In this document: piece by piece, positions 6,265 through 22,842 of the stretch | Layout of the letters: every line of letters begins with the position of its first letter | Position numbering within the stretch: position 1 is the stretch's first letter | Origin: Acutalibacteraceae bacterium | GTDB taxonomy: Bacteria > Bacillota > Clostridia > Oscillospirales > Acutalibacteraceae | DNA length: 29,017 bases | Direction: 5' to 3' | NCBI GenBank assembly: GCA_045603625.1 | Contig: JAZUMM010000108.1 | Span: 1-29,017 of the forward strand | The notes under the pieces: generated by a model | Databases searched by the model: none | What the model was told of the DNA's origin: nothing | The model's input: the letters and a program-made list of their open reading frames with translations, nothing else | Position numbers and translations under genes: made by a program

Positions 6265-6294
6265 TTTAATCTACGTTTAAGAGGTAATTTTGTA

Positions 6295-7494
6295 ATGAAA
6301 AATGTTCTTCTTATAGCCCATTTTTGTGACTATGGTACGGAACAATCAAATAATCGCTTTAATTACATAGCAGAAATGTTAAGTAAGGCAGGGCATAGTG
6401 TAACTGTTGTTACATCAAGCTTTTGTCATAGAGAAAAAAAGCAAAGGGAAGAGGTTCCTCAACCGTGTAACGGCTATAGTACCGTGCTTTTGAATGAACC
6501 GTCTTATGCAAAAAACGTTTCGTTAAAAAGGCTTTTTTACTCTCATAAGGTTTTTGCTGAGAATTTAAAAAATTACCTTAAAACCTGTAATAAGCCGGAT
6601 GTGGTTTATACGGCAATACCCTCAAATGATGTAGGTGCAGTAGTTGCAGATTACTGCAAGAAGGAAAATGTTCCTCTGATTACAGATATTCAGGATTTGT
6701 GGCCTGAAGCATACAAGCTTGTTTTTAATATACCTGTTGTGAGCGATATTATTTTTGCTCCTATGTTAAAGCAAGCAAACAAGCTTTATGCCCAGTCAGA
6801 TAAAATTGTTGCAGTTTCTCAAACATATGTAAAAAGAGGTTTGGAAAATTGCCATAAGGATAAAACAGGGCTCAGCGTTTTTCTCGGAACGGAGCTTGAA
6901 AGCTTTGATAAATCGGCACAAGGCTTTGATATAGATAAAAGCGAAGAAGAAATTTGGGTAACCTACGTTGGCACCTTGGGGCACAGCTATAATATAGAAA
7001 TTGTTATTGACGCACTTAAGCTGTTGCCTGAAGATTTAAAGAAAAAAGTTGTTTTCAAGGTGCTGGGCGATGGTCCCTTGAAAGAAAAATTTGAGTTGTT
7101 CGCAAAGAATACAGATGTTAAAACTGATTTTCTCGGCAGACTTGAGTACGGTAAAATGGTAGCGTACCTTAAAAGGTCCGATATAGCAGTTAACCCTATT
7201 TCAAAAGGCGCAGCTCAAAGTATTATAAATAAACATGGAGATTATGCAATGGCAGGTCTTCCTGTTGTAAGCACGCAAGAAGCAGAAGAGTACAGAAATC
7301 TTCTTGAAAAATATAATTGCGGTATAAGCTGCGGAGCAGAGGATGTTACTGCAGTTTCAGAAGCAATCAAGCTTCTTGTTGAAAATGTGGAATTAAGAAA
7401 TGAAATGGGCGAAAATTCCAGAAAGCTCGGAGAAGAGAAATTTGACAGAAAGCAATCGTATAAAGAAATACTTGATATGATTGAAAAAATATAA
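6295..7494 (+). CDS. GT4 glycosyltransferase (WbuB-like)
   Basis: NRFNYIAEML, DIQDLWPE, YVGTLGHSY, NKHGDYAMAGLPVV. Confidence 0.85.
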   Translation: MKNVLLIAHFCDYGTEQSNNRFNYIAEMLSKAGHSVTVVTSSFCHREKKQREEVPQPCNGYSTVLLNEPSYAKNVSLKRLFYSHKVFAENLKNYLKTCNKPDVVYTAIPSNDVGAVVADYCKKENVPLITDIQDLWPEAYKLVFNIPVVSDIIFAPMLKQANKLYAQSDKIVAVSQTYVKRGLENCHKDKTGLSVFLGTELESFDKSAQGFDIDKSEEEIWVTYVGTLGHSYNIEIVIDALKLLPEDLKKKVVFKVLGDGPLKEKFELFAKNTDVKTDFLGRLEYGKMVAYLKRSDIAVNPISKGAAQSIINKHGDYAMAGLPVVSTQEAEEYRNLLEKYNCGISCGAEDVTAVSEAIKLLVENVELRNEMGENSRKLGEEKFDRKQSYKEILDMIEKI

Positions 7495-7525
7495 CTTTTC
7501 TTTAGGAAAGAGGAAAAAGAAATAA

Positions 7526-8668
7526 ATGAATTTTTTGATTAAGTACGGTCTGTTGCCGGTTCTGTTTCTTTTAGGCTTCGCAATGTCCAGCGATGCCTTC
7601 AGATTCGGGTTCGGGGTAGATATACCGATGATTATAGTAATAGCCTGTGTTTTCTATTACTTGTTTATTTACAAAAAAAGAATACGAGGCGGTATGGCAT
7701 ATTCCTGGTGGATTTATCTTATGGTTGTTCCCACAATTGCCATGACAATGCTTGAGGGTGGAAACATACAGTATATGCTTGTTTCTACCTGTGCTTTGTT
7801 ACTTCCGTTTGCTTTGGAGCCCTTTGTACCCGGTAATAATAAGCAAACAATCAGGGGCTTTTATTTAACCTTTATTGTTTCTACAATGGTACTTCTGTTG
7901 TATGCAAACTTCGGATTTTTAAGCAACTGGAACACTAACTGTATTGCGTACCTTATTTATCTTGGTGTTGCAGGTGCAGCCGTAATACTTTCAGAAAATA
8001 GAAAGAATGTTGTTGTCTGGATATGTCTTTTTTACGTGTTTATTCAGCTTATGGTAACTCAGAGCCGAAATGTTATTTCTGCACTTATTATTGTTATTCT
8101 TCTTGTGTTGTTTAAAAAGACGTTTTCAAAAAAAGGACCTTACACAGCAGCTTGCACCTTTGCAATTGCGTATCCTGTTTTGTTTCCTATAATTACAAAG
8201 CAGGTTGCAGGTACAAGCACATATACGTTCCTCAGACAATTTATGGAATCCTTTTTTGATAAAGAAGGTATTTTCAGCGGACGTGACGGCTTGTTCCCTA
8301 TTGCAGAATCAATTATTGAAAGAGATTTATTTAATAATATTCTGGGCTTTGGTAACCCTATGACCGAAATTCTTTCGGTTCACAATGACTATTATATGAT
8401 ACGCTATGCCTACGGCATTATCGGAACTGTTATTATATGTGCATTACTTATTACGTTCTTTAAAAATGCGTATGTTCTTATTAAAAAAGGCGATAACATT
8501 ACCTTTGGTTGTACAGCAGTTATTATAGGCATTTTGTATCAACAGGCCTCTGAAGGCTGGTTCCTTGGAACCCCGTTGATTGTTTTAATGGCTTTTGTTT
8601 ATATGGCAATAGTTATAAAACGATACAGAATGAGTGAAGGGACACATTTAAAAAATGAAAATGCATAA
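7526..8668 (+). CDS. Multi-pass membrane protein of the O-antigen ligase/Wzy_C type (polymerase or oligosaccharyltransferase)
   Basis: About 10 hydrophobic segments; TQSRN, FSGRD and VHNDYY resemble the SR, GR and HNxY motifs of WaaL/Wzy_C proteins. Confidence 0.7.
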   Translation: MNFLIKYGLLPVLFLLGFAMSSDAFRFGFGVDIPMIIVIACVFYYLFIYKKRIRGGMAYSWWIYLMVVPTIAMTMLEGGNIQYMLVSTCALLLPFALEPFVPGNNKQTIRGFYLTFIVSTMVLLLYANFGFLSNWNTNCIAYLIYLGVAGAAVILSENRKNVVVWICLFYVFIQLMVTQSRNVISALIIVILLVLFKKTFSKKGPYTAACTFAIAYPVLFPIITKQVAGTSTYTFLRQFMESFFDKEGIFSGRDGLFPIAESIIERDLFNNILGFGNPMTEILSVHNDYYMIRYAYGIIGTVIICALLITFFKNAYVLIKKGDNITFGCTAVIIGILYQQASEGWFLGTPLIVLMAFVYMAIVIKRYRMSEGTHLKNENA

Positions 8669-9416
8669 AAGAATTTTAATCTGGGCAGATGTATTATTTT
8701 CTTTCCTTGCTACTTTTTTTGGTGTTAAAGCAACAATTAAAACTCCCCGGGAAACTGTGGAAGAGCTTTTAAAAGGTAAATCCCTCATTCGCTTTGGTGA
8801 TGGGGAATTTGGTATTTATCGCGGAAAGGATATTCACTATCAAAAATGCTCTCCTGAATTAATTAAGTGCTTTGAAAAAATTAAAAAGGATTTTGAAGAG
8901 CAGGGTGAAAATTGTCCGTATATACTTGCTGTACCCAGAAGATTTATGACTGTCAAGGGAACCTTTCTTGCAAAAAAAAGAGTGTATGTTTCCAGCTGGT
9001 CTCAGTCAAGGTATGATTTCAAAAAGAACTTTAAACACAATTTGCCTTATGGTGATTCATTCCTTTTTGAAAAAGTAAATAAAGAAATTTACAGTAAAAT
9101 CTGGTCAGACAGCTCTTGTCCCGAAAATGTTATTTTTGTTCATAACAACGAGCAGTATGCGCAGTACTTTGCCTCTACCTACAAAAAAAATACGGTTTTT
9201 GTAAAATGTCCTTCAAGGGATTCTTTTGAGGAAATAAATTCTCTTGAAAAAGCCATTAAAGAAAAAATCAGTGAAAATAATTGGGATAAGCAACAGGTTA
9301 TGCTTACAATTTCTGCAGGCCCTGCCGGTAAGGTGCTTGTATATAAGCTTTCGCAAGAGGGCTACCGTTGTATAGATGCAGGTCATTGTTGGGATGACCC
9401 TTTGGAAGGTATTTAA
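8655..9416 (+). CDS. GT-D fold glycosyltransferase (DUF1792/SP_1767-like)
   Basis: GKSLIRFGDGEF near the N-terminus and SAGPAGKVLVYKL...GYRCIDAGH near the C-terminus. Confidence 0.82.
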   Translation: MKMHKRILIWADVLFSFLATFFGVKATIKTPRETVEELLKGKSLIRFGDGEFGIYRGKDIHYQKCSPELIKCFEKIKKDFEEQGENCPYILAVPRRFMTVKGTFLAKKRVYVSSWSQSRYDFKKNFKHNLPYGDSFLFEKVNKEIYSKIWSDSSCPENVIFVHNNEQYAQYFASTYKKNTVFVKCPSRDSFEEINSLEKAIKEKISENNWDKQQVMLTISAGPAGKVLVYKLSQEGYRCIDAGHCWDDPLEGI

Positions 9417-9417
9417 A

Positions 9418-10443
9418 ATGAAAAAGGTCAGTATAGTTATTCCTGTTTATAATGCAGAAAAATATGTAAAACGCACCTTGGATGCACTTTTAAAACAAAC
9501 GTATGAAAATATTGAATTGGTGATTATTGACGATGGCTCTTCTGATAAAAGCGGAGAAATTGTTTTAAAGGAAGCAGAAAAGGATAACAGAATAAAGTAT
9601 TTTAAAATTAAAAACGGCGGTCCGGGTAACGCCAGAAACGTGGGCGTAAGCAAGGCAACAGGTGAATATATCGGCTTTTGCGATGCAGATGATATTCCTG
9701 ATGAGGATATGTTTGAAAATCTTGTAGCATACCTTGAAAATAATAATGCGGATATGTCGTTGTGCGATATGTTCAGTGAGCGTGATAACAGCAATTACGG
9801 TTTGCCGTGGGAAGATAATACCTTAATAAAGGGTGAGGCAGTTTCTGAAGAAATAATTGCTTCCATGGTAGGTAATAAGTCTGATAACGATAAGTCTGTA
9901 CCATTGTGGGGATGTGTGTGGCGTTGCTTGTTTAAAAAAGAGATTATTGACAGGTTTGACGTGAAATTCCCAACAGAAATTCATTTTGCAGAAGATTTAA
10001 TTTTTGTTCTTAATTATCTTAAAAGGGCAACAAGCGTTGCTATATGTAACAAGTCTCTTTATTTTTACGCTTGTGTTGAAAGCTCTATAATGAACTCCTT
10101 TTTCTCATATAAAAAGGATATGTTCAAAGCAAGAAAAATTCTTGTTGCGTATATTATAAAGGCGATTGAGGATTTACCTTGTTATGAAGAATTAAGAAGT
10201 CGCCTTACTGTTACAGAGCGTTGCTATTATCAGGAATGTGTTGGTAATGCTTGCAGAAAAGCAGAGGGCAGAACACAAAAAGACGTTAAAGCAGAGCTTA
10301 AAGAAATACTTTTTGACGAGGATGTAAAAAAAGCATTTAAAAGCTTTGATGTTCAGGATAAAAAAAGAAAATTATCATATTTAATGATTCAAAAAAGAAT
10401 GACAGGAGCAATTATGCTCTATTACAAAATCCGTTTCAGGTAA
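9418..10443 (+). CDS. GT2 glycosyltransferase
   Basis: VSIVIPVYNAEKY, IDDGSSD, GPGNARNVG, FCDADD, EDLIF; ATG at 9418 after GGAAGG (the track start at 9376 is an over-extension). Confidence 0.92.
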   Translation: MKKVSIVIPVYNAEKYVKRTLDALLKQTYENIELVIIDDGSSDKSGEIVLKEAEKDNRIKYFKIKNGGPGNARNVGVSKATGEYIGFCDADDIPDEDMFENLVAYLENNNADMSLCDMFSERDNSNYGLPWEDNTLIKGEAVSEEIIASMVGNKSDNDKSVPLWGCVWRCLFKKEIIDRFDVKFPTEIHFAEDLIFVLNYLKRATSVAICNKSLYFYACVESSIMNSFFSYKKDMFKARKILVAYIIKAIEDLPCYEELRSRLTVTERCYYQECVGNACRKAEGRTQKDVKAELKEILFDEDVKKAFKSFDVQDKKRKLSYLMIQKRMTGAIMLYYKIRFR

Positions 10444-10459
10444 AAGGTGAGGTGAAGGT

Positions 10460-11506
10460 ATGAGCAACTTAAAAAGAAATACAGGCTTTGACATTATAAG
10501 GATTATTGCAATTTTTATGGTTGTTGCAATTCATTCGCACGTTGCACCTCTCGCAGTTAATAAAGGGTCTGCAATGTGGTATGTTGTTATGTCATTACAG
10601 GTAATTTGTTTAGTTGCGGTACCTTTGTTTTTTATGGTTTCCGGAGCGCTTCTTCTCTCCGACGAAAAAGAAACGGATATAAGCACTCTTTATAAAAAGA
10701 GACTTCCAAAACAAGCCATACCCTTTATTGTGTGGAGTGTTTTTTATGTAATTGCAAGAATTGTTATGGGTAAAATATCCTTTAGCATTTCTGCATTTAC
10801 AAGTCTTTTATACGAGCCTGCATATTACCAGTTCTGGTTTATGTATACTCTTCTTGCGATTTATTTGTTGCTTCCTATATTACAGACACTCATTAAAAAT
10901 TGCGATAAGAAAAAAACAGAGTACATTTTAATTTTGTGGGCAATTTTCAGTGTTCTTTTACCTGTTATTTCAAGGTTTGTTAAGGGCTTTGATATCTCGG
11001 ATCACGTTGACCTTATTTTGTGTGAAGGTTATATAGGTTATTTTATATTTGGTTACTACCTTAATAAATATAAAACTAATATTAAAAATGCTACTGCAGT
11101 TTTAATATGGCTTATTGGTGCTCTTTCCACAGTCGTTTGTGCGGTAATAGAATATAGGGTAACTCATAAGCTTAATCTTACGTATGAGGGCTTTGTGTAT
11201 CAGGCATATATGGTACCGGGAACAGTTGTTTCTGCAACAGGAGCTTTCCTTTTCTTGAGTAATAAAAAATATAATTTCAGTGAAAAAGTAAATGGCATAA
11301 TAACAAAGGTAGCTGTACTTTCTGTGGGCGTTTATTATATTCATATGCTCGTGCTTACAGTAATTGAAAAGATTGGCTTTACAGGTGAAAACAATATTTT
11401 GATTCTCGGTGTTAAAATTATTGCTACTTACCTTGTTTCTTTAATCGGGGCATTTATAATTTCAAAAATCCCCGTAGTACGCAAAATCCTTTTAGGAGTA
11501 AAATAA
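10460..11506 (+). CDS. Acyltransferase-3 (OafA/WecH-like) membrane O-acyltransferase
   Basis: FDIIRIIAIFMVVAIH, AVPLFFMVSG, FWFMYTL, SVGVYYIH; many TM segments. Confidence 0.88.
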   Translation: MSNLKRNTGFDIIRIIAIFMVVAIHSHVAPLAVNKGSAMWYVVMSLQVICLVAVPLFFMVSGALLLSDEKETDISTLYKKRLPKQAIPFIVWSVFYVIARIVMGKISFSISAFTSLLYEPAYYQFWFMYTLLAIYLLLPILQTLIKNCDKKKTEYILILWAIFSVLLPVISRFVKGFDISDHVDLILCEGYIGYFIFGYYLNKYKTNIKNATAVLIWLIGALSTVVCAVIEYRVTHKLNLTYEGFVYQAYMVPGTVVSATGAFLFLSNKKYNFSEKVNGIITKVAVLSVGVYYIHMLVLTVIEKIGFTGENNILILGVKIIATYLVSLIGAFIISKIPVVRKILLGVK

Positions 11507-11507
11507 A

Positions 11508-12305
11508 ATGAAGATTGAGCATATAGTTTCCACAATGAACAGAGAAGATTTTTCTTTTTTGGAAAATCTTGGTTTTGTAACAGATGTGGTTGTTGTTAAC
11601 CAGAATTGCCCGCAAAAAACTGAAAGCTTTTCTTTATCAAACGGCGTAAGTGTTAAAGCAATTTCAACTCCTGAAAAAGGTCTTAGCCGAAGCAGAAATA
11701 AGCTTATAGAAAATGCAACGGGTGACGTGTGTATTATAGGTGACGATGATGTCCAGTACCTTGACGGTTACCTTGATATTATTGAAAATGCATATAAAAA
11801 GTATACTGATGCAGATATAATAGTTTTTTGCTTTACTCACGAGAAAGGTAAGCAAACACGCTTGAGGTATACAGAAGATGTTGCAGTTTCAATGCAAAAC
11901 GTAAGCAAATTTGCTTCTGTTGAAATTACATTTAAGTCAGAGAGTATAAAAAAAGCGGGAATTTCCTTTAATAATAATATCGGTCTCGGCACGCCGTTTC
12001 CCAGTGGCGAAGAAAATGCCTTTTTGGCTGATGCTTTAAGGGCAGGGCTTAAAATATATCACGTTCCGCAGACTATATGTGTTGCAGTGGAAGATATGAA
12101 AATTAACGAGAATTATGATGTTTTAAAGTATATTGAAGATAAGGGCGCATCATTTTATTGTATTTATAAAAAAATGTTCCCCGTATATTCTCTTGCATTT
12201 ATAATTTTAAAGAAAAAAACAATTTTTAAAGATGTTTCAATTTTAAAAGCCTTTCGTTTTATGTTGAAGGGTAAAAGGAAATATATAAAATCCGTAAAGG
12301 AGTAA
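11508..12305 (+). CDS. GT2-like glycosyltransferase
   Basis: IVSTMN, VVVNQ, KGLSRSRN, IGDDDV, GEENAFL. Confidence 0.82.
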   Translation: MKIEHIVSTMNREDFSFLENLGFVTDVVVVNQNCPQKTESFSLSNGVSVKAISTPEKGLSRSRNKLIENATGDVCIIGDDDVQYLDGYLDIIENAYKKYTDADIIVFCFTHEKGKQTRLRYTEDVAVSMQNVSKFASVEITFKSESIKKAGISFNNNIGLGTPFPSGEENAFLADALRAGLKIYHVPQTICVAVEDMKINENYDVLKYIEDKGASFYCIYKKMFPVYSLAFIILKKKTIFKDVSILKAFRFMLKGKRKYIKSVKE

Positions 12306-12308
12306 GCT

Positions 12309-13187
12309 ATGCTTATAAGTGTAATAACGCCTACCTACAACAGAGCATACATACTGAATAAATGTTACAACAGTCTTGTTGCTCAGACCTCAAAGGCCTT
12401 TGAGTGGATTGTGGTGGATGACGGTTCATCAGATAATACTGAGGAATTGGTAGCTTCTTTTATTGAAGAAAACAGAATTAAAATCAAGTATATAAAGCAG
12501 GCAAACGGCGGTAAGCATATTGCTCATAATACTGCAGTTTTAAATTCACAGGGTGACCTTGTTGTGTGCCTTGATTCTGATGACGTTTTAACAGAAAATG
12601 CAATTGAAAAGGCAGTTTCTTTCTGGGAAGAAAATGCACAAGGGCATAATACGGGTATTCTTGCAAAGCGTGGCGATATGGTAGAGCGTAAGCCTATTTG
12701 CTCAGCGCTTCCCGAGGGTGTTAAGGAATGTACTATGTTTGATTTAACAAACAAATATGGGTTTGAGGGTGATACAATTCTCTATTTCAGGCGTGAAATT
12801 TTAGAGAAAAATCTTTTTAAATCCTTTGAGGGTGAAAGGTTTATTCCCGAAACAAATATGTACATTGAAATAGATAAATTTGGCACAATGCTTCTTTTAG
12901 ATGAGGTTTTGTACCTTTGTGAATATCTGCCTGACGGTTTAACTGCAAAATATCACAAGCTTTTAGAAAATAATCCAAACGGTACTGCCGATACATATTA
13001 TAAACAGATGTGTATGGCAAAGGATTTTAAAACAAAAGTGAAATATGGGTTATTAACCAATATATATAAATCACTTTCTCAAAATAAAAAGGAATTACAT
13101 TTTAAAGAAAACAGATTTTTGTTAATGGCTTTAAGTATTCCTTCAGCATTTATAAAAAATAAGTTTTTAAGTAAATTTGAGAGGTAA
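12309..13187 (+). CDS. GT2 glycosyltransferase
   Basis: ISVITPTYNRA, VVDDGSSD, NGGKHIAHN, LDSDD, EYLPDGLT. Confidence 0.92.
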   Translation: MLISVITPTYNRAYILNKCYNSLVAQTSKAFEWIVVDDGSSDNTEELVASFIEENRIKIKYIKQANGGKHIAHNTAVLNSQGDLVVCLDSDDVLTENAIEKAVSFWEENAQGHNTGILAKRGDMVERKPICSALPEGVKECTMFDLTNKYGFEGDTILYFRREILEKNLFKSFEGERFIPETNMYIEIDKFGTMLLLDEVLYLCEYLPDGLTAKYHKLLENNPNGTADTYYKQMCMAKDFKTKVKYGLLTNIYKSLSQNKKELHFKENRFLLMALSIPSAFIKNKFLSKFER

Positions 13188-13190
13188 ATT

Positions 13191-13973
13191 ATGATACCTA
13201 AAATAATTCATTACTGTTGGTTCGGCAGAGGTCAAATGCCTGAATTGGCGGTTAAGTGTATTGAAAGCTGGAAAAAGTTCTGTCCCGATTATGAAATAAT
13301 GGTCTGGAACGAGGATAATTTTGATATTACTTCTAACCGCTATGTTAAAGAGGCGTATGAATCAAGAAAATTTGCTTTTGTTACAGACTATGTAAGGCTT
13401 TATGCAATGTACAATTACGGTGGTATTTATATGGATACTGATGTAATGATACTTAAAAGTCTTGATGAATATTTGCATCATCACGCGTTTTCAGGCTTTG
13501 AGAGTAAAACAAAAATCCCGACCGGTATTATGGCATCAGAAAAAGGCTACGAGGTAATGGCGGACTTATTAAAGTTTTATGATGATGCAGTTTTTATAAA
13601 GGAAGATGGCTCATTTAACATAGTTACAAATACTGAAACTATTACAGCTATGTTTACTGATTGGGGCTTTGTGCCAAACGGGGAATATCAGGAGATTAAG
13701 GGTATGGCATTTTACCCGCAAAATATTTTTTGCCCTGACCACAAAAAGCTTAATGACAGTAAGTATATGAAAGAAACTGCCACAATTCACTATTTTGCAG
13801 GCTCATGGAAAAGTGAAGCAACACTTAAAAGGGAACGTTCTTTGTGGTGGAAGGCTTTTGCAGTTGTGGCAACGTCTGTATCAAAGGTGCTTACAAAGAT
13901 TTTGGGCGATAAATGGACAAATGCAAAAAATAAAGTCCGTGACAATGTTATTGAAAATGAAAAAAACAAATAA
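13191..13973 (+). CDS. GT32 (DXD, Gly_transf_sug) glycosyltransferase
   Basis: MIPKIIHYCWFG, WNEDNFD, AFVTDYVRL, GGIYMDTDV. Confidence 0.92.
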   Translation: MIPKIIHYCWFGRGQMPELAVKCIESWKKFCPDYEIMVWNEDNFDITSNRYVKEAYESRKFAFVTDYVRLYAMYNYGGIYMDTDVMILKSLDEYLHHHAFSGFESKTKIPTGIMASEKGYEVMADLLKFYDDAVFIKEDGSFNIVTNTETITAMFTDWGFVPNGEYQEIKGMAFYPQNIFCPDHKKLNDSKYMKETATIHYFAGSWKSEATLKRERSLWWKAFAVVATSVSKVLTKILGDKWTNAKNKVRDNVIENEKNK

Positions 13974-13989
13974 TCAGAGGAGCGGTTGT

Positions 13990-14991
13990 TTGAAAAGAGA
14001 TATAAACTTTAATTACATCCGTGTTGCTGCAATGGTTGCAATTGTTTTGTGCCATTATTTTCAGGTGTACGGTTTTTTTGGAGTTTCTTCGTGGTTGAAT
14101 ATAGGTGTTCAGGTGTTTTTTGTTCTTAGTGCTAAACTGATAAGCACCAAAAAATTCAACACAAAAGGTGATGTGCTCAGGTTTTTAAAAACGCGAATTC
14201 TCAGAATTTATATACCTGTCTGGATATACCTGATTTGCCTTATACCTGTTTTGTTTGTTGTGGGCAGGGGACCGGATGTTTCTGCAATTATAATGTATTT
14301 TCTGGGGCTTGCGGGCTTTTCTGAAATGGTTGTTTTGGGACTTGGTCATTTCTGGTACATATCTGTGTTGCTTATCTGTTATCTTTTGGTACCGGTATTA
14401 TATAAAATTGCTGATTTTTGCAAAAATACGGGGAAGGCAAAGGCCTTTGTTTTACAGGTAGCTGTTACAGCCGTACCTGTTTTAGTCTTTTTGTTTACAC
14501 AGTATAAGTTTTATGGTGTGAATATAGCATTTTTCTGCGCAGCATACTTTTTATTTTATAAAACAAAAGATAATGAAAATTGGTATAAAGGGAAGGCAAT
14601 TAAGTTATTCCCGTTAGTAGTTGTATTAACAGCCATCAGGCTTTTTACGGATACAAAGGAAATTGCTTCGAACAGTTATTATGACGGTTTATTTGTTACT
14701 TCAGTAAAAGCAATTACGGGAATGTTTTTGTTCTTTGCAATGTACAAATTGCTTTTGGTTTTAAAGGCAAAAGAATTAAAGATTGTTGATTATATATCAG
14801 ATATTTCTTACGAGGTTTACATTGTTCATCAATTTATACTTCTTGCGCTTTTTGAGTTTATTTCATTCTTTAAATCAGGTGTTGCGGGCAAAGTTTCAAT
14901 GTTGATATGCTCCGTAATAATGATTTTCTTTAATGCCGTGATTGTTTTTTACGTGAAAAAGTTTATTGAAAAAAGGGTTATTAAAAAATGA
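13990..14991 (+). CDS. Second acyltransferase-3 membrane O-acyltransferase
   Basis: TTG start at 13990, 7 nt after GAGGAG (13977-13982), gives (M)KRDINFNYIRVAAMVAIVLCH; GVQVFFVLS, HFWYIS, ISYEVYIVHQ. Confidence 0.83.
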   Translation: MKRDINFNYIRVAAMVAIVLCHYFQVYGFFGVSSWLNIGVQVFFVLSAKLISTKKFNTKGDVLRFLKTRILRIYIPVWIYLICLIPVLFVVGRGPDVSAIIMYFLGLAGFSEMVVLGLGHFWYISVLLICYLLVPVLYKIADFCKNTGKAKAFVLQVAVTAVPVLVFLFTQYKFYGVNIAFFCAAYFLFYKTKDNENWYKGKAIKLFPLVVVLTAIRLFTDTKEIASNSYYDGLFVTSVKAITGMFLFFAMYKLLLVLKAKELKIVDYISDISYEVYIVHQFILLALFEFISFFKSGVAGKVSMLICSVIMIFFNAVIVFYVKKFIEKRVIKK

Positions 14992-16217
14992 ATGTTTTAA
15001 TTGCTTTAGGCAGTATCACACCTAATGATGATGCCAACACAAATATTGCAAAGCTTATTGCCTCAGAAATGAAAAAAGGTAATAACGTAGCTTTACTTGG
15101 CACCGCTTTTCAAAAGGCACCTGAAAAAGAAGTTATAGACGGTGTTACGTATCACAGAATTTTAAGGCTTGAAAAAGAAAAGAATAAAAAGCTTTGGCAA
15201 GTATGGTCTTCTTTAAGCGGTAAAGGTGAACGAATAAAGTTTATTGCAAAGCATCCTTTTTACTTTTTTAAAATTACTTTTAATCATATAAGGGCACGAT
15301 TTACAGATGTACGGGAGGATGCGTACATAAAAAAGCTTAAAGAGCTTGAAAAAACAGAAAAAATAGACAGGGTAATTGTAATCACATCACCTTTTTATAT
15401 TGCTACAGCTGCACAAAAGGCTATTAAAAATGCAGAGGTTGTGTGGCATCAGCTTGACCCTAACCAGTCAAATATTACTGCAATTTATAAAGGTAAAACA
15501 GATTTACTTGAAAAAGAAAAGTCTCTTTATGAGTTTGTAAAGTATGCTGTTGTTCCGCGTCTTGTTTACGAGGAAAATATGCAAAATGAGCTTTCTGTTT
15601 ATAAAGATAAAATGATTCCTGCGGAGTTTCCGAATGTACGTAGGCTGTCATCTTCAGCAGTATCCGATGACGTAAGCTTTGATGAAAATAAAATAAACCT
15701 TGTGTTTGTAGGCGTGTTTTACGAGGATATCCGCAATCCTGTTCCATTGTTTGAAATTGTTTCAAAAACAAAAAATGAAAATATTGTTCTTAATATAGTC
15801 GGTGGCGGATGCGAGGAAATTGTTGAGGAATGGGCATCAGAGTATCCAAATAAAATTATCAGACACGGTTACCATTCACTTGAAGCTGCCCTTAATGCAA
15901 TGCAGAATGCCGATATACTTATAAATGTGGATAATACTGCAAAAAATATGCTTCCCAGCAAGGTTAATGATTATATAAGCACCGGCAAGCCGATTGTTAA
16001 TTTTCATCCCTTTGAGGATAGTAAAACGGTTGAATACTTTGAAAAATATCCGTTACATCACAACGTGTATATGCAAAATGTCTCTGCACAAGAGGTAGAA
16101 CTTTTTGAACGTTTTTGTGTTGAAAACAAGGGTAAGAGCATTGAGTTTAATGAAATAATAAGTAATTATAAGGAAAGCACACCGGAATATGTTTCCGCTA
16201 TGCTTTTAAGGGATTAA
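14988..16217 (+). CDS. GT-B fold (GT4-like) glycosyltransferase
   Basis: C-domain LVFVGVFY...IVGGG...ADILINVDN...PSKVNDYISTGKPIV; ATGA overlap with the upstream gene. Confidence 0.72.
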   Translation: MNVLIALGSITPNDDANTNIAKLIASEMKKGNNVALLGTAFQKAPEKEVIDGVTYHRILRLEKEKNKKLWQVWSSLSGKGERIKFIAKHPFYFFKITFNHIRARFTDVREDAYIKKLKELEKTEKIDRVIVITSPFYIATAAQKAIKNAEVVWHQLDPNQSNITAIYKGKTDLLEKEKSLYEFVKYAVVPRLVYEENMQNELSVYKDKMIPAEFPNVRRLSSSAVSDDVSFDENKINLVFVGVFYEDIRNPVPLFEIVSKTKNENIVLNIVGGGCEEIVEEWASEYPNKIIRHGYHSLEAALNAMQNADILINVDNTAKNMLPSKVNDYISTGKPIVNFHPFEDSKTVEYFEKYPLHHNVYMQNVSAQEVELFERFCVENKGKSIEFNEIISNYKESTPEYVSAMLLRD

Positions 16218-16219
16218 TT

Positions 16220-16876
16220 ATGAAAAAATTTAAAAATATAATTTCTCTCGGTTTTAATTGTCACGTTGCAAAGGACCTGGAAAGGTTAGGGTACAGAAAT
16301 GCCAGCTATCCCTTTGATTGGCTCATAAGTAATTTTTGTGATGTGATAGAGTCAATAGATACAGATTTTGTTCAATGGTTGAAGTTTTCTGATATTGAGC
16401 AGGATTCAGAGCACGAAAATGTGTACCACGATAAGGGTACAGGTCTTGATTTTTATCACGATTTTTTTCCTGATAAAACAATTGAAGAGCAGTACGATAA
16501 GGTTAAAAGTAAATATTCCAGAAGAATTGAAAGATTTCAAAAAGACTGTGCTCAGGCTACGTTGTTTATCCGCTTTGTGCGTAACGAGGAGGATTTGAAA
16601 TATATACAAAACAATCAAGAAAGAATATTATCCGTTCTGAAAAAAGAAAATGAGGATAATGATTGTATATATCTTTTACTTAACGAAAATCTTCAGGCAT
16701 ATGCAGATGATAAAAAGTTTTTTATGGTTACGGAATTGGTTCATCCGATAAAATCAAGCAAATCCGTACAAGCTTTTATAAAGAAAAATTTGGATATGAA
16801 AAAAACGCTTGTTTTAAAAAATAAAAAAAGGTATACAAAAAAAAGAATCGCTTCATTAAAAAAGAGGTTTATGTGA
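16220..16876 (+). CDS. DUF1796 (putative papain-like cysteine hydrolase/transferase) protein
   Basis: ISLGFNC, SYPFDW and FYHDF motifs. Confidence 0.75.
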   Translation: MKKFKNIISLGFNCHVAKDLERLGYRNASYPFDWLISNFCDVIESIDTDFVQWLKFSDIEQDSEHENVYHDKGTGLDFYHDFFPDKTIEEQYDKVKSKYSRRIERFQKDCAQATLFIRFVRNEEDLKYIQNNQERILSVLKKENEDNDCIYLLLNENLQAYADDKKFFMVTELVHPIKSSKSVQAFIKKNLDMKKTLVLKNKKRYTKKRIASLKKRFM

Positions 16877-16882
16877 GAATAT

Positions 16883-18430
16883 ATGGGTAAACTGAAAGGC
16901 ATTATAGAAAAACAAAAAACAATAGTTAATTTGCTGTCTGCCATAATGGCATACGGCTTATCCATTGTTATAAATTTTTTCCTTTCTCCGTATATTACAA
17001 AAACATTAGGCGTTGAGGCAAACGGCTTTGTTACCCTTGCAAATCAGGTCGTGGGATACGTTTCTCTCGTTACTGTTGCCCTTAACTCAATGGCAAGCCG
17101 TTTTGTAAGTGTACATTTAATGAACAAAGAGGAGGAAAAGGCAAAAGGATACTTTTCTTCTGTAACAATAGCAAATGTAGTTATCGGCGTGGTATTGTTT
17201 ATTCCTCTTGTAGTTTGCTCTTTAAACGTTGAAAAGCTTTTTACGGTACCAAGTGATTTGGTTGATGATACGGTTTTATTGTTTATTTTAGTTTCTATTA
17301 ACTTTGTTGTTGGTGTTGTTACAAATATATACAGCGTTTCTACATTTGTGGTTAATAAGCTTTATTTATCAACCTGCCGTAATATTGAAGGTAATATTTT
17401 GCGTTGCGGTACGCTTTTAATAATGTATACTGTGTTACCTCCAAAAATGTATTATGTTACCTTATCTGTAATAGTTAATACCGTGTATATTGTTTTATGG
17501 AATGTTTATTACACAAAAAAATATACACCTCAATTAAAAATCAAAATGCAATATTTTAAATTATCATATTGCATTGAGCTTGTAAAATCAGGTGCGTGGA
17601 ATCTTTTAAGCAGTCTGAATTCCGTGCTTAATACAGGTCTTGATTTATTGTTATGTAATATTTTTATAGACCCTGTTTCAATGGGCGTTTTGTCTGTTTC
17701 AAAGATTTTTCCTACGGCAATATCCACAATGGTCAATTCTGTTTCAGGTGCATTTGGCCCTGAAATGACTCAAAAATATGCAGATGGCGATTATAACGGT
17801 TTTACAAAAACCATTCTTAAAAGTGTTAAGTTTATCGGTATTGTAATTAATATACCCATAGTTGTGCTTGTGGCAATGGGCAAACAGTTTTATAAGGTAT
17901 GGCAGCCTACCCTTGATGAAGGGGAATTGTTTATTCTTTCATTTCTTGCAATTGCGGGCGTTGTGGTAAGTGGTAGCACAGCTTGCGTTTTTGGAATGTT
18001 TACTGTTGTTAATAAGCTTAAGTTTCATTCGGTAACATCACTTTTGTTTGGTGTTTTAAATGCCGTTGTTGTAATTGTTGCATTAAGCATTTCCACAGAA
18101 AACGGTGTTTATATTATTGCAGGCACAAGTACGGTGCTCACTATTATCAGAAACTATTTACTCACATTTCCGTATGCCGCTAAATGTCTTAAGCAAAAGT
18201 GGTATGTTTTTCACAAGGCATCGTTTTCATCAATTGTTGCAGCGGCATTATCAGGCGTGTGTTCTTATTTTGCAGTGAAGCTTATAAATATGAACAGTTG
18301 GCTTACAGTTATTATCGGCGCAGGTATTTGTGCAGTAGTTACTGTTATTGTAAGTGCATTGATTCTTTTTACAAATGAAGAAAAGAAGCAGTATATTAAA
18401 CTTATTACTAAAAAGATAAAGAAGGCGTAA
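16883..18430 (+). CDS. wzx: Wzx flippase (MOP superfamily)
   Basis: 515 aa with about 12-14 TM segments; SPYITKTLGVEANG, LNSMASRF, GLDLLLCNIF, in a glycan locus. Confidence 0.85.
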   Translation: MGKLKGIIEKQKTIVNLLSAIMAYGLSIVINFFLSPYITKTLGVEANGFVTLANQVVGYVSLVTVALNSMASRFVSVHLMNKEEEKAKGYFSSVTIANVVIGVVLFIPLVVCSLNVEKLFTVPSDLVDDTVLLFILVSINFVVGVVTNIYSVSTFVVNKLYLSTCRNIEGNILRCGTLLIMYTVLPPKMYYVTLSVIVNTVYIVLWNVYYTKKYTPQLKIKMQYFKLSYCIELVKSGAWNLLSSLNSVLNTGLDLLLCNIFIDPVSMGVLSVSKIFPTAISTMVNSVSGAFGPEMTQKYADGDYNGFTKTILKSVKFIGIVINIPIVVLVAMGKQFYKVWQPTLDEGELFILSFLAIAGVVVSGSTACVFGMFTVVNKLKFHSVTSLLFGVLNAVVVIVALSISTENGVYIIAGTSTVLTIIRNYLLTFPYAAKCLKQKWYVFHKASFSSIVAAALSGVCSYFAVKLINMNSWLTVIIGAGICAVVTVIVSALILFTNEEKKQYIKLITKKIKKA

Positions 18431-18432: not shown

Positions 18433-19335
18433 ATGAATCCGTTAATTCAGTTTAAACTTGGCATAACAAGATTTTTAGGGCCGGATAAATGGAACGATGT
18501 TCTTTTAAAAAACGGTTTTAAAAAGTTTAAAAAGGCTCAGCCGGATTTGGCTGCTGAGGTTGAAAAAAATATAAAATACAAAGGTATTCACAAGGGTGAA
18601 AGGTGCTTTATAATCGGTAACGGACCATCTCTTAAGGAGCAGGATTTATCTGTTTTGGGTGACGAGTATGTGCTTACCTGTAATCAGATTATGAGGAATC
18701 CTGTTTTTCCGAGTCTTCGCACTAATTATCACTTTTGGGCAGACCCTTCGTTCTTTGCTTTGAGTCCTGACAGGCCGGAGGATATGGAAATTTTGGAGGT
18801 TATGCTCAGTGTTAATACCGAAGGCAACAGACCTGTTAACTTCTTTGCTCAAGAGGGCTATGATTTTGCAAAAAGGTTTAACCTTCAAGAAAAGCTTGAT
18901 ATTGCATTTTATTCGCACCGTCTGGAATTAACAGATGACTTTAATAACGGAATTCATTTCGACAAATTCACGCCTAATTTACATACGGTTGTTCATTATG
19001 CTGTTGCTATGGCAATATATATGGGTTTTTCTGAAATATATCTTTTAGGTTGCGATTGTACAAATGTTATTACTGCAGCAAACACTCGTCTTATGGCAGG
19101 TGATGGCGCAGAGTATGCATACAAAATTTCCGAAAATGAGAAAAAACGTATGATGAACAGGAACAATGCAATATCTATGGAGGATGAGCTTAAAAGCTTC
19201 TACGAGGTATTTAAGGGCTACAGAGTTTTGCGTGATATTTGCGAAAAATCTGGTATTAAGCTTTACAACTGCACAGCAGGCGGTCTTTTGGATTGCGTTG
19301 AAAGAAAAAAATATGAAGATGTAATAGGAAGGTAA
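18433..19335 (+). CDS. Maf/DUF115-like protein with CstII-type sialyltransferase-fold motifs; candidate ulosonic-acid transferase
   Basis: RCFIIGNGPSL...VLTCN and TVVHYAVAMAIYMGFSEIYLLGCD parallel CstII VIIAGNGPSL...VFRCN and TSGVYMCAVAIALGYKEIYLSGID. Confidence 0.75.
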   Translation: MNPLIQFKLGITRFLGPDKWNDVLLKNGFKKFKKAQPDLAAEVEKNIKYKGIHKGERCFIIGNGPSLKEQDLSVLGDEYVLTCNQIMRNPVFPSLRTNYHFWADPSFFALSPDRPEDMEILEVMLSVNTEGNRPVNFFAQEGYDFAKRFNLQEKLDIAFYSHRLELTDDFNNGIHFDKFTPNLHTVVHYAVAMAIYMGFSEIYLLGCDCTNVITAANTRLMAGDGAEYAYKISENEKKRMMNRNNAISMEDELKSFYEVFKGYRVLRDICEKSGIKLYNCTAGGLLDCVERKKYEDVIGR

Positions 19336-19339: not shown

Positions 19340-20104
19340 ATGAAAATAATCGGTGTTATTCCTGCAAGATATAAGTCCTCTCGTTTTCCCGGCAAGCCAC
19401 TTGCTGATATCTGTGGCAAGCCAATGATATGGTGGGTATATAATCAGTGCAAAAAGGTTGAAGATTTTGATGCTGTTTACGTTGCAACAGATGATGATAA
19501 AATCTTTGACACGTGTAAAAGTCTTGGCATTGAGGTTATTATGACCTCTGATACACATAAAACAGGTACTGACAGAATCGGAGAGGTTGCACGCAAAATA
19601 CCTGCAGAGCTTATTGTTAACATTCAAGGGGATGAGCCTCTTTTGGAGCCTGCAACAATTAAGGCTGCAATAGAGCCGTTCTATTCAAATCCTGACCTTG
19701 AAATTTCTAATCTTATGACTAAAATCACAGACCCTATTGAGGTTGTGAATTTTACGGTTCCTAAGGTTATTACTAATAAAGACGGTATAGGTGTCTACCT
19801 TACAAGAGCAACTGCTCCGTATCCGAAGGGGAGCCTCGATTACGCATATTACAAGCAGGTGTGCGTATACGGCTTTAAGCCTGAGGCATTACAATTTTAC
19901 TGTGATTACGGTATGAAGTTCGGTAAGGCAAGGGTAGAAGCAGTTGAGGATATTGAAATATTACGTTTTATTGAAAACGGTTATAAGGTTCAGTATATTG
20001 AGGTTGATTCTGATACCGTTGCAGTTGATACACCTAACGACTTGGAAAAGGTCAGAAAAATTGTGGCAGAAAAGATTAATGCAGGGGAAATAAGTAATAA
20101 TTAA
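19340..20104 (+). CDS. kdsB: KdsB-type 3-deoxy-ulosonate cytidylyltransferase
   Basis: IPARYKSSRFPGKPL, VATDD, TGTDR, VNIQGDEP, VDTPNDL are KdsB signatures rather than NeuA signatures. Confidence 0.88.
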   Translation: MKIIGVIPARYKSSRFPGKPLADICGKPMIWWVYNQCKKVEDFDAVYVATDDDKIFDTCKSLGIEVIMTSDTHKTGTDRIGEVARKIPAELIVNIQGDEPLLEPATIKAAIEPFYSNPDLEISNLMTKITDPIEVVNFTVPKVITNKDGIGVYLTRATAPYPKGSLDYAYYKQVCVYGFKPEALQFYCDYGMKFGKARVEAVEDIEILRFIENGYKVQYIEVDSDTVAVDTPNDLEKVRKIVAEKINAGEISNN

Positions 20105-20113
20105 GAGGTGCTT

Positions 20114-21688
20114 ATGAGCAAAATCAATGTACTTGACTGCACGTTACGTGATGGCGGTTATTGTAACAATTGGATGTTCGGCAAACAGAATATCGGCAGA
20201 ATTATTAATGCTCTTGTAGAAGCAGACGTGGAAATAATTGAGTGCGGTTTTTTAACTCAAAAGGTTGAATATGATGTTAACTCCACTCAGTTTACAGATG
20301 TTTCACAGGTTGGTAGCTTTATACCTGCAAACAAACACGGCAAGCTTTTTGTTTGTATGATTAATTTCGGTGAGTTTTCTGTAGAAAATTTACCTTCTGC
20401 AGAGGATACGTCTTTAGATGGTATTCGCGTTGCTTTTCACAAAAAAGATATGGTTGAAGCCATGGCGTTTTGCAAGCAAATAAAAGAAAAGGGCTACAAG
20501 GTTTTTGTTCAGCCTATGGTTTCTTTAGGGTATACAGAGGAAGAATTCAGCGCCTTGATTTCTCTTGCAAATGATATAATGCCACACGCATTTTATATTG
20601 TAGATAGCTTTGGTGTTATGAAGCAAAAAAACCTCTTCAGACTTTTTAAAATTGTTGAAGAGGAATTGGATGAAAATGTAATTGTCGGCTATCATTCTCA
20701 TAATAATATGCAGTTGGCTTATTCAAATGCTCAGTCTCTTGCGGATGCAGATACTGAAAGAAGCTTGATAATTGATTCCAGTATTTTTGGTATGGGACGC
20801 GGTGCAGGTAACCTTAACACAGAGCTTTTTGTAGAATATCTTAATGATAATAACGGTAAAAGCTATGTGCTTCGCCCGTTACTTGTTGTAATTGATGATA
20901 TTTTAAATAATTTTCACGAAACAAATTATTGGGGCTATTCTTTGCCGAACTATTTATCTGCAAAGCACAATGCACACCCCAATTATGCAACGTACCTTGA
21001 TTCTAAAAAGACACTTACCGTTGAAGCGATTGATGAAATCTTCGGTATGATGGCTGAAGATAAAAAATCATCATTTGATAAAAAATATATGGAAGAGCTT
21101 TACCTTAAATATATGATGAAGGGTAATGTTAACGAGAAGAAGCTTTTTGAATTAAAAGAACAGCTTTGTGGTAAAACGGTGTTGATTATTGCTCCGGGTA
21201 GCAGCTCTGTAACGGAAAAGGATAAAATAATTTCCTTTGCCCAACAGGAAAACGTTATAACGATAAGCGTTAATTTTCATTACGATGAATGTGAAACTGA
21301 TTTTATTTTCCTCAGTAATCTTCGCAGATTCAGAAAAATGAAGAAAGGTAAAGAAAAATGCATTGTAACCTCCAATATACCTGCAGAGAATGTGTACCTG
21401 CAAACAGATTACCAAAGTCTTCTGAATGATTATGAGGGTGTGAAGGATAATGCAGGTATGATGCTTGTTAAGTTTCTTATAGAGCTTGGTGTTAAAAATA
21501 TTTGCCTTGCGGGATTAGACGGTTACTCTATTGATGCTACAAAAAACTTTGCGGATGAAGCAATGAATTTCTTTACACAAAAAAGAATTTTTGAAACTAT
21601 GAATGAGGGTATGAATCAGGCTCTTGGTGAATATAGTAAGTTAATTAATATTCAATTTATAACAACACCTAAGTATGTAAAAATATAA
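20114..21688 (+). CDS. DRE-TIM metallo-aldolase (4-hydroxy-2-oxovalerate aldolase-like) fused to a C-terminal CstII/Maf-like domain
   Basis: LDCTLRDGGY, YIVDSFG, YHSHNN, DSSIFGMGRGAGN; C-domain KTVLIIAPGSS...ITISVN...LIELGVKNICLAGLDGY; ATG at 20114 follows AGAGG. Confidence 0.8.
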   Translation: MSKINVLDCTLRDGGYCNNWMFGKQNIGRIINALVEADVEIIECGFLTQKVEYDVNSTQFTDVSQVGSFIPANKHGKLFVCMINFGEFSVENLPSAEDTSLDGIRVAFHKKDMVEAMAFCKQIKEKGYKVFVQPMVSLGYTEEEFSALISLANDIMPHAFYIVDSFGVMKQKNLFRLFKIVEEELDENVIVGYHSHNNMQLAYSNAQSLADADTERSLIIDSSIFGMGRGAGNLNTELFVEYLNDNNGKSYVLRPLLVVIDDILNNFHETNYWGYSLPNYLSAKHNAHPNYATYLDSKKTLTVEAIDEIFGMMAEDKKSSFDKKYMEELYLKYMMKGNVNEKKLFELKEQLCGKTVLIIAPGSSSVTEKDKIISFAQQENVITISVNFHYDECETDFIFLSNLRRFRKMKKGKEKCIVTSNIPAENVYLQTDYQSLLNDYEGVKDNAGMMLVKFLIELGVKNICLAGLDGYSIDATKNFADEAMNFFTQKRIFETMNEGMNQALGEYSKLINIQFITTPKYVKI

Positions 21689-21707: not shown

Positions 21708-22805
21708 ATGAAAAAAGTTATGCTTGTTTTCGGTACAAGACCGGAAGCTATAAAAATGTGTCCGTTAGTAAACGAATTAAAAAGCAGAAAAGAGCTTCAG
21801 ACAGTTGTGTGTGTTACAGGTCAACACCGTCAGATGCTTGACCAGGTGCTTGAAGCATTTTCTGTAACACCGGACTACGACCTTTCAATTATGAAAGAAC
21901 GTCAGACTCTTTTTGACGTAACAACAAATATTCTTAATTCAATTAAAGAGGTTCTTGAAAAGGAAAAGCCGAACGTAGTTCTTGTACACGGTGACACTTC
22001 CACAACGTTTGTTACAGCGCTTGCTTGTTTTTATTTGCAGATTCCTGTTGGTCACGTTGAGGCAGGCTTAAGAACCTACAATATTTATTCACCATATCCT
22101 GAAGAGTTCAATCGTCAGGCGGTAGGTATTGTGAGTCAATTCAATTTTGCTCCCACAGAGCTTTCCAGAGATAATCTTCTGAAAGAAGGTAAATGTGCCG
22201 ATAATATTTATATTACAGGTAACACTGCTATTGACGCACTTAAAACAACAGTTAAAGAAAATTATACTCATCCTGAGCTTGAATGGGCAGAGGGTAGCAG
22301 GCTTATTATGATTACTGCTCATCGTCGCGAAAATCTTGGTGAACCAATGAAGAATATGTTCAGGGCAATTCGCAGAGTTATGGATGAAAATCCTGATGTT
22401 AAAGCGATTTACCCTATCCACATGAATCCTGTTGTTCGAGAAACTGCAAATGAGTTTTTAGGTGATGATGAAAGGATTCACATTATTGAGCCTCTTGAGG
22501 TTCTTGATTTTCACAATTTCCTTAATAAAAGCTATCTTATTCTTACAGACTCAGGTGGTATTCAGGAGGAGGCACCGTCTTTGGGTAAGCCTGTTCTTGT
22601 TATGAGAGATACAACTGAACGTCCTGAGGGAATTAAGGCAGGTACCCTTAAGCTTGTGGGAACAGAAGAAGAAACAATCTATAATGAATTTACAAAGCTT
22701 CTTACAGATGAAAAAGAATATAATAAAATGAGTCAGGCATCAAATCCGTATGGTGATGGCTTTGCTTGTAAGAGAATAGCGGATATTCTTATTGAAAAGT
22801 TATAA
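21708..22805 (+). CDS. wecB: UDP-GlcNAc 2-epimerase, non-hydrolysing (WecB/MnaA)
   Basis: FGTRPEAIKM, TGQHRQML, VHGDT, HVEAGLR, TAHRREN, TDSGGIQEEAPSLGKP, NPYGDG. Confidence 0.96.
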   Translation: MKKVMLVFGTRPEAIKMCPLVNELKSRKELQTVVCVTGQHRQMLDQVLEAFSVTPDYDLSIMKERQTLFDVTTNILNSIKEVLEKEKPNVVLVHGDTSTTFVTALACFYLQIPVGHVEAGLRTYNIYSPYPEEFNRQAVGIVSQFNFAPTELSRDNLLKEGKCADNIYITGNTAIDALKTTVKENYTHPELEWAEGSRLIMITAHRRENLGEPMKNMFRAIRRVMDENPDVKAIYPIHMNPVVRETANEFLGDDERIHIIEPLEVLDFHNFLNKSYLILTDSGGIQEEAPSLGKPVLVMRDTTERPEGIKAGTLKLVGTEEETIYNEFTKLLTDEKEYNKMSQASNPYGDGFACKRIADILIEKL

Positions 22806-22842
22806 AAAATTCGGACTAAATTTAATTTAGTCCGAATTTTTT
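22804..22842. terminator. Bidirectional terminator between convergent wecB and oadB
   Basis: Perfect 17 bp inverted repeat aaaaaattcggactaaa / tttagtccgaatttttt with a 5 nt loop. Confidence 0.92.

Follow-up and report, generated by a model that had tools for sequence, protein, structure and literature searches.

A KdsB-family cytidylyltransferase with a substituted sugar pocket, encoded beside a pyruvate aldolase in a Clostridia polysaccharide locus: a probable CMP-ulosonate synthetase for an acid other than Kdo

In a stretch of 29,017 nucleotides from an Acutalibacteraceae bacterium (contig JAZUMM010000108.1 of assembly GCA_045603625.1; the whole stretch is called the window below), a gene of the kdsB family lies directly upstream of a gene for a class II pyruvate aldolase, at the end of a polysaccharide operon. 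Its product, P0001, resembles the synthetases that activate 3-deoxy-manno-octulosonate (Kdo) with cytidine triphosphate (CTP), and a preliminary description of the gene had proposed from its motifs that it activates a different 3-deoxy-ulosonic acid. Our analysis points in the same direction, since P0001 is probably a cytidine monophosphate (CMP)-ulosonate synthetase whose substrate would be a 3-deoxy-2-ulosonic acid different from Kdo and supplied by the neighbouring aldolase, P0122. Two testable features of CMP-Kdo synthetases, the invariant H181/G183/Q211 triad (E. coli numbering) and the coupling to Kdo supply, are both missing, and for this reason we class P0001 as an apparent variant inside the KdsB family, distinct from KdsB proper. 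New here are the correlation between pocket and partner, natural fusions of the two proteins, their reciprocal adjacency, canonical and variant pairs within single genomes, and one counter-example. Full-text literature searches turned up no account of a KdsB paralogue that is coupled to a pyruvate aldolase. The '4-deoxy-2-hexulosonic acid' of E. coli K3 and the kdsB paralogues of prasinophytes were looked at as leads and set aside as unrelated.

P0001 keeps the KdsB fold and catalytic residues

The kdsB-like open reading frame (ORF; positions 19340-20104, plus strand) is complete, with an ATG start and 254 codons followed by a stop. P0001 matched PF02348 with 159 bits and reached the cut-off of NF009905 (291.4 bits; cut-off 255), and it did not reach those of the equivalog NF003948 (180 versus 281) and of the PseF model TIGR03584 (43 bits versus 205.7); no match to a NeuA model was found in the curated hidden Markov model scan. 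Identity to solved KdsB and KpsU structures was 32-38%. The AlphaFold2 model of P0001 (pLDDT 96.3) had as its best match in the PDB KpsU with bound CMP-Kdo (1gqc; TM-score 0.90/0.94, root-mean-square deviation (rmsd) 1.7 Å), and the top matches were 1gqc, 1h7e and 1h6j (TM-scores 0.89-0.94, rmsd 1.7-1.9).

The motifs IPARYKSSRFPGKPL, NIQGDEP, VDTPNDL, KQVCVYGF and DIEILR were all read in the translation, which bears out the earlier statement that the CTP-binding motifs are intact. The residues that bind CTP and Mg2+ and serve catalysis are kept (R10, K19, Q96, D98 and D230, the last three being Q98, D100 and D225 of E. coli KdsB), as are the contacts to the sugar ring, namely R156 (R157, in the FSR motif), Y177 (Y185) and E206 (E210). 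P0001 is thus like E. coli KpsU and KdsB (EC 2.7.7.38; 1GQC, 3K8D) in its fold and in all of these positions, and it would be expected to work likewise, by in-line attack of the anomeric hydroxyl with two metal ions. In KdsB, the sugar is bound by Q98 through two hydrogen bonds (PMC2901514), and its C5-OH is held by Q98 and Y185 (PMC12199768). FSR and RHIGVYAYR have been termed 'substrate binding motifs' in the P. aeruginosa enzyme (PMC7717453), and the roles of R157, Y185 and E210 as ring contacts were drawn from PMC7717453 and PMC12199768.

The sugar pocket differs at positions that are invariant in canonical KdsB

BLASTP against KdsB of E. coli K-12 (b0918, read from NC_000913.3) paired RHLGIYGY with KQVCVYGF and MLEQLR with DIEILR. 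His181 of the E. coli protein corresponds to Gln173 of P0001 (codon 19856-19858), Gly183 to Cys175 (codon 19862-19864) and Gln211 to Ile207 (codon 19958-19960), and identical equivalences were obtained with KpsU (1gq9) and with KdsB from V. cholerae (3oam) and H. influenzae (3duv, 1vh3). The His to Gln, Gly to Cys and Gln to Ile exchanges claimed in the preliminary description are therefore confirmed. Its proposal of another substrate would have been weakened had validated enzymes shared them; those of E. coli, V. cholerae and H. influenzae as well as KpsU keep His, Gly and Gln. P0001 further differs from KdsB and KpsU by T125N, V142P and L209I (N124, P141 and I205 in P0001). These clade-specific changes cluster in the β-strand of residues 173-177 and at the helix start of residues 205-207, with N124 and P141 in addition.

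Sequences with the signature Q98-R157-Q181-C183-Y185-E210-I/L211-D225 (E. coli numbering), or Q-Q-C-Y-E-I for short, are called type A here, and P0001 matches this signature. In the set of sequences used for the tree, H181, G183 and Q211 were invariant in all 69 canonical members, whereas among the 62 type A members Gln and Cys were invariant and Ile occurred in 95%. Because each group is fixed in its own way at these positions, the replacement is no chance variation.

The type A pocket goes together with an adjacent aldolase

Pocket types and gene neighbours were compared in four samples: a phylum set of 401 genomes, the 150 best representatives of clusters at 50% identity, 80 metagenome loci retrieved with a KdsB-like protein, and loci of the aldolase. 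The phylum set contained 27 KdsB homologues with the canonical motifs K-H-[ILV]-G-[LI]-Y and E-x-L-E-Q-L-R, 26 of them in genomes with LpxC. Type A (K-Q-V-C-[VI]-Y and E-D-I-E-I-L-R) was present in the genome of the window (G000) and in G010 and G104, and an HMGL-like aldolase adjoined the gene in each of them. The one canonical KdsB outside an LpxC-containing genome (G352) is encoded beside genuine KdsA (420 bits), KdsD, KdsC and a KpsS/C-like gene. This locus (L046:6980-11413), from a genome that lacks WaaA as well as LpxC, carries the full canonical Kdo set together with the KpsS/KpsC-like Capsule_synth protein, and G352 is possibly a monoderm whose capsule contains Kdo or is linked to it.

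Among the cluster representatives, 46 were of type A and 42 canonical. Fifteen proteins of 420-808 residues turned out to be natural fusions of a KdsB-like domain to an HMGL-like aldolase, either full or as the TIM barrel only, and all 15 had the type A signature (one with Thr for Cys). None of ten long canonical forms showed aldolase similarity, their N-terminal extensions of 100-230 residues being unrelated.

The metagenome loci gave a similar picture. An aldolase was encoded in the flanks of 14 of the 16 type A loci; in one of the other two the contig ends 460 bp downstream, and the remaining one has a truncated HpcH/HpaI aldolase. Other non-canonical pockets were accompanied by an aldolase in 10 of 14 loci, and canonical genes in none of 50, 17 of which carried KdsA instead. 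For 24/30 versus 0/50 we estimate a Fisher p of about 1e-15, and the test computed on an initial count (23/27 versus 0/51) gave 5e-16, both figures coming from related sequences that are not independent. On a low-coverage human-gut contig (L138:423-1754), a type A gene of 83% identity comes first, then a half-length HpcH/HpaI ORF and then the gene of a BspA-LRR/Big_2 surface protein; the short aldolase may reflect truncation or misassembly.

The association was also seen from the side of the aldolase. In a collection with one genome per species, the matches listed included at least 579 confirmed loci of the aldolase, their hosts among these matches being Clostridia, Bacilli, Bacteroidales, Treponema, Akkermansia, Gastranaerophilales and two archaeal metagenome-assembled genomes (MAGs). 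A KdsB-like gene adjoined the aldolase in 23 of the best 80 of the at least 579 loci, and none of the 23 was canonical: 12 were of type A, 5 of an N-F-G-Q-D-E type (Bacillus, Gottfriedia, Treponema) and 6 of other types. The idea that every aldolase locus has a KdsB-like partner was thus rejected. Most of the rest of the best 80 had a PseF-like CTP_transf_3 protein in place of the KdsB-like one, and some had a TagD-like protein. Aldolases that are close to orthologous occur with a type A activating enzyme in some cases and with a PseF-like one in others, an interchange that fits the aldolase product being the substrate without specifying its identity. The two archaeal contigs, from Thermoplasmata (L069) and Nanobdellota (L079), encode full-length aldolase-MptE fusions that are 49-54% identical to P0122, and on L079 a KdsB-like gene with the pocket N-H-G-Y-D-L lies nearby; these could reflect transfer between domains or a binning error.

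Phylogeny, paralogue pairs and the host genome

The tree was computed with FastTree, and PseF-like sequences served as its root. Canonical sequences formed a basal grade, and type A fell together with the other non-canonical sequences into a single clade (105 tips, support 0.81) from which canonical members were absent. The aldolase-linked clade of variants that had been suggested as a check is recovered in this broader form, with type A tied to the aldolase.

Two diderm MAGs, one from Selenomonadaceae (G402) and one from Akkermansia (G401), each carry a canonical KdsB adjoining genuine KdsA and, in addition, a type A gene adjoining an aldolase. Such pairs point to a division of labour between the canonical and the type A protein within one genome. 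That type A might be the only KdsB of the Akkermansia MAG was considered and rejected, as its canonical gene was found beside KdsA.

The genome of the window measures 1.95 Mb and is 78% complete, and KdsA, KdsD, NeuB, LpxC and WaaA were not found in this assembly. It encodes a SleB-like spore-cortex hydrolase, and the nearest relatives of its kdsB-like/aldolase pair, among the matches listed, are MAGs of Acutalibacteraceae, Ruminococcus and Oscillospiraceae. From the missing KdsA, KdsD, LpxC and WaaA, the SleB-like hydrolase and these relatives, the host appears to be a monoderm without a recognisable Kdo pathway.

The partner aldolase and its variants

The aldolase domain of P0122 spans residues 1-300 (PF00682, 68 bits), carries the RDG and HxH metal motifs, and matched the 4-hydroxy-2-oxovalerate aldolase models NF006049 and TIGR03217 with E-values of 3e-30 and 1e-26. 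Its best solved relatives were 3dxi, a 'putative aldolase', and then DmpG-type aldolases; a weak PF01973 match covers residues 414-471 in the C-terminal part. P0122 is like DmpG, BphI and HsaF (1NVM, 4JN6) and the uncharacterised 3DXI in being a DRE-TIM metallolyase, from which the formation of a 4-hydroxy-2-oxo acid out of pyruvate and an aldehyde would be expected, and the DmpG-type enzymes, its closest characterised relatives, join the two reversibly. Unlike in DmpG systems, there is no DmpF-type dehydrogenase partner, the protein has a C-terminal MptE/DUF115-like domain, and aldolases of its type occur in a biosynthetic glycan operon and are sometimes fused to the cytidylyltransferase.

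In two genomes (G090 and G348), a related pocket variant, QQC[MI]DM, has as its partner HpcH/HpaI, a class II pyruvate aldolase that is not homologous to the HMGL-like one; what stays constant is hence 'a pyruvate aldolase' and not one family. At both loci (L050:8322-12526 and L049:8411-12017) the gene for a full HpcH/HpaI protein precedes that of the KdsB-like protein with this pocket, and genes for a methyltransferase, a D-2-hydroxyacid dehydrogenase and an epimerase come after the latter, in what looks like a second, different aldolase-based cassette for a CMP-sugar acid.

In many cassettes a KdgK-like kinase or a HAD protein resembling phosphoglycolate phosphatase (PGP) is encoded directly 3' of the aldolase. 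The PfkB kinase occupies this position at L062:7577-8602, at L044:334-1359 and at five other loci; its scores with the 'KHG/KDPG aldolase/sugar kinase fusion' model, over the kinase portion, are 528-547 bits, and it matches KDG/KDGal kinases as well. The PGP-like HAD replaces it in 17 other loci. No kinase or HAD adjoins the kdsB-like/aldolase pair in the window.

Proposed function and its alternatives

We propose that P0122 joins pyruvate to an aldehyde or aldose, yielding a 4-hydroxy-2-oxo acid, that is, a 3-deoxy-2-ulosonic acid, with the reaction presumably running in the direction of synthesis. P0001 would then turn this product into its CMP ester, using CTP and two Mg2+ as KdsB does, by attack of the anomeric 2-OH of a β-pyranose 2-keto-3-deoxy acid on the α-phosphate. 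KdsB chemistry on a Kdo-like ring is expected because the residues for CTP, Mg2+, the carboxylate and the C4/C5 face are all kept. The protein encoded upstream, similar to MptE and to the sialyltransferase CST-I, probably transfers the CMP-activated acid onto the Wzx/Wzy-built surface polysaccharide of this monoderm Clostridia bacterium. The six exchanges H181Q, G183C, L209I, Q211I, T125N and V142P would face the C6 side chain, and the sugar is presumed to be other than Kdo. With low confidence we suggest that the C6 tail falls short of the C7-C8 diol of Kdo in length or in hydroxyl groups, as in a 3-deoxy-hex- or hept-ulosonic acid, because the changes add bulk (Gly to Cys) and drop hydrogen-bonding groups (Gln to Ile, His to Gln).

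Several observations weigh against this proposal. P0001 reached the cut-off of TIGR00466 (165.3 bits; cut-off 155.2), a curated equivalog for CMP-Kdo synthetase. An LpxC-less genome, G379, has two loci in which genuine KdsA (419-423 bits), KdsD and KdsC stand beside a KdsB-like protein with a pocket altered still further (N98, F181, G185, D210, S211), and because an altered pocket there adjoins the genuine Kdo-supply proteins, the pocket change alone would be insufficient against Kdo. That His181 and Gln211 touch the sugar in E. coli KdsB is an assumption of the proposal. Kdo itself is, in principle, within reach of a class II aldolase that is given D-arabinose and pyruvate, the absences in the host assembly are provisional given its 78% completeness, and the KdgK-like kinases and HADs of other cassettes imply phosphorylated intermediates that would lie outside the proposed scheme. 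The two copies in G379 (L047:7028-8539 and L048:7326-10288) lie in Wzx loci that also encode MptE-like and GT-D transferases. As a strict rule, the equation of a canonical pocket with KdsA linkage was rejected on account of this genome.

P0001 might be a CMP-Kdo synthetase after all, the aldolase providing Kdo from pyruvate and D-arabinose independently of phosphoenolpyruvate (PEP) and the pocket changes being neutral or kinetic in effect. The scores above the cut-offs of TIGR00466 and NF009905, the retained equivalents of Q98, R157, Y185 and E210, and the G379 loci agree with this, as does G010, which has LpxC and a type A gene as its only KdsB-family member. In G010, however, WaaA, KdsA above the cut-off and a canonical KdsB were not found in a whole-genome search (the gene order at its locus, L044:334-3682, is KdsB-like, aldolase, KdgK-like kinase). 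The invariant H181, G183 and Q211, kept even by the KdsA-linked protein of G352, possibly a monoderm, are replaced in all type A sequences; genomes that require Kdo keep a separate canonical KdsB-KdsA pair besides the type A-aldolase pair; and KdsD was not found in the 78% complete host assembly, and hence no route to arabinose 5-phosphate. We consider this explanation unlikely. The earlier suggestion of a non-Kdo ulosonic acid linked to the aldolase is supported in part: fusions, strict adjacency, paralogue pairs in which each member has its own synthase, and the lack of Kdo genes in the host assembly all speak for it, and the altered pocket beside KdsA in G379 and the assumed contacts of His181 and Gln211 limit it.

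The substrate might also be something other than a free ulosonic sugar acid: a keto-deoxy acid in phosphorylated form, for instance, or a small 2-oxo or hydroxy acid with which the polysaccharide is decorated. DmpG-type aldolases such as DmpG and BphI prefer small aldehydes, aldolases of this family are partnered in some loci by TagD-like cytidylyltransferases and thiamine pyrophosphate enzymes, and the kinase and HAD genes 3' of the aldolase would suit such a compound. P0001 nevertheless retains the residues for a pyranose ring and carboxylate (Q98, R157, Y185, E210) together with both Mg-binding Asp residues, its neighbour with a sialyltransferase fold suits a CMP-ulosonate donor, and the window has neither kinase nor HAD next to the pair, so that we regard this possibility as quite improbable. 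A decaying, non-functional KdsB relic in a monoderm would agree with the LPS (lipopolysaccharide) genes not being found in the host assembly, 78% complete as it is. It is very hard to reconcile with an intact ORF that has a ribosome-binding site, operon coupling and all catalytic residues, with thousands of close homologues of 76-89% identity, and with a signature that is conserved across phyla and occurs in fusion proteins, and we give it hardly any weight.

Relation to other CMP-ulosonate systems

Unlike KdsB, P0001 is associated neither with KdsA, KdsD and KdsC nor with LPS, and its gene adjoins a class II pyruvate aldolase gene in a monoderm Wzx/Wzy locus. NeuA, PseF and CMP-Kdn synthetases share PF02348 with P0001 and make CMP-β-ulosonates for transferases of the sialyltransferase fold; the likeness is weak (43 bits with the PseF model; TM-score about 0.6, rmsd above 7 Å), and the sugars of NeuA- and PseF-type enzymes come from PEP-dependent NeuB-type synthases, in contrast to the setting found here.

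It is possible, and we put it forward tentatively, that type A proteins and the DRE-TIM aldolases next to or fused to them form a third, PEP-independent route to CMP-ulosonates beside KdsA/KdsB and NeuB/NeuA. Its product would be a new 3-deoxy-2-ulosonic acid, probably short-chain or partly deoxygenated, on the surface glycans of very many gut and rumen Clostridia, Bacteroidales, Bacilli, spirochaetes and some archaea, and the pockets QQCYEI, NFGQDE, NHGLNE, NAGEDH and CVGETL would each stand for a different acid.

Close homologues of P0001 are named '3-deoxy-manno-octulosonate cytidylyltransferase' in the source databases. If the proposed function is right, thousands of proteins so named in Gram-positive genomes from gut and rumen do not make CMP-Kdo. 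Type A genes would then mark an uncharacterised acidic sugar on commensal surfaces, possibly a new antigen, phage receptor or ligand of host lectins, and the PEP-independent aldolase route to activated ulosonic acids would be potentially useful in chemo-enzymatic synthesis. The pocket gives a rule that separates true KdsB (H-G-Y...E-Q) from its paralogues (Q-C-Y...E-I), and the sugar could be identified in the cultivable carrier strains that exist among the cassette hosts. These include Proteocatella sphenisci DSM 23131 with a type A pocket, Flavonifractor sp. An82 with the NHGLNE pocket, and Bacillus sp. FJAT-29937 and Gottfriedia acidiceleris with the NFGQDE pocket.

Organization of the locus

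The genes for the MptE/CST-I-like protein, P0001, P0122 and WecB are the final ones of a Wzx/Wzy-type polysaccharide locus (Table 1). The first of them ends 4 bp before the kdsB-like start, and the position of the kdsB-like ribosome-binding site inside its end is indicative of translational coupling; the aldolase gene starts 3 bp after the kdsB-like stop. We regard the MptE/CST-I-like protein as a candidate transferase for the CMP-activated acid. Locus L054 shares the gene order Wzx, MptE-like, KdsB-like, aldolase.

Table 1. Features of the window around the kdsB-like gene
Feature	Position	Strand	Remarks
Remaining Wzx/Wzy-type polysaccharide locus	3848..18430	+	profile matches
MptE-like/CST-I-like (sialyltransferase-fold) protein	18433..19335	+	PF01973 37.7 bits; PF06002 E 1e-4
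Shine-Dalgarno sequence AGGAAGG	19326..19332	+	7 nt 5' of the kdsB-like ATG, within the 3' end of the preceding gene
KdsB-family cytidylyltransferase, type A pocket (P0001)	19340..20104	+	254 aa
Codons Q96-G97-D98	19625..19633	+	E. coli Q98-G-D100 (sugar O5 and Mg site), retained
Codons Q173-V174-C175-V176-Y177	19856..19870	+	E. coli H181-L-G183-I-Y185 (substrate-binding strand)
Codons I205-E206-I207	19952..19960	+	E. coli L209-E210-Q211
HMGL/DmpG-like class II (DRE-TIM) aldolase with MptE/DUF115-like C-terminal domain (P0122)	20108..21688	+	526 aa
Non-hydrolysing UDP-GlcNAc 2-epimerase (WecB)	21708..22805	+	TIGR00236 522 bits; last gene of the operon
Bidirectional terminator-like hairpin	22804..22842		18-bp stem; closes the polysaccharide operon

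The upstream part of the locus encodes a DegT aminotransferase, a PglC-like initiating transferase, a PglD-like acetyltransferase and two Acyl_transf_3 proteins, together with GT1-, GT2-, GT-D- and GT32-like transferases, a Wzy-like protein, a DUF1796 protein and the Wzx flippase. The gene for DUF1796, a putative papain-like family, lies at 16220-16876 between a weakly GT1-like gene of 409 codons and that of the flippase. As listed, the ORFs at 13191-13973 (GT32-like) and 13795-14991 (Acyl_transf_3, TTG start) overlap by 179 nt; the true start of the latter is probably further downstream, because its Pfam match begins at residue 71.

An FGGY kinase and a HAD protein at 491-3676 were considered as parts of the module and were not counted, being xylulokinase-like and YqeG-like. 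On the minus strand, an operon of the Na+-translocating oxaloacetate-decarboxylase type (22854-26396) converges with the polysaccharide operon and has the hairpin in common with it; it encodes a carboxyltransferase alpha subunit of 460 residues, a gamma-like protein of 172, a biotin carrier of 138 and a beta subunit of 395.

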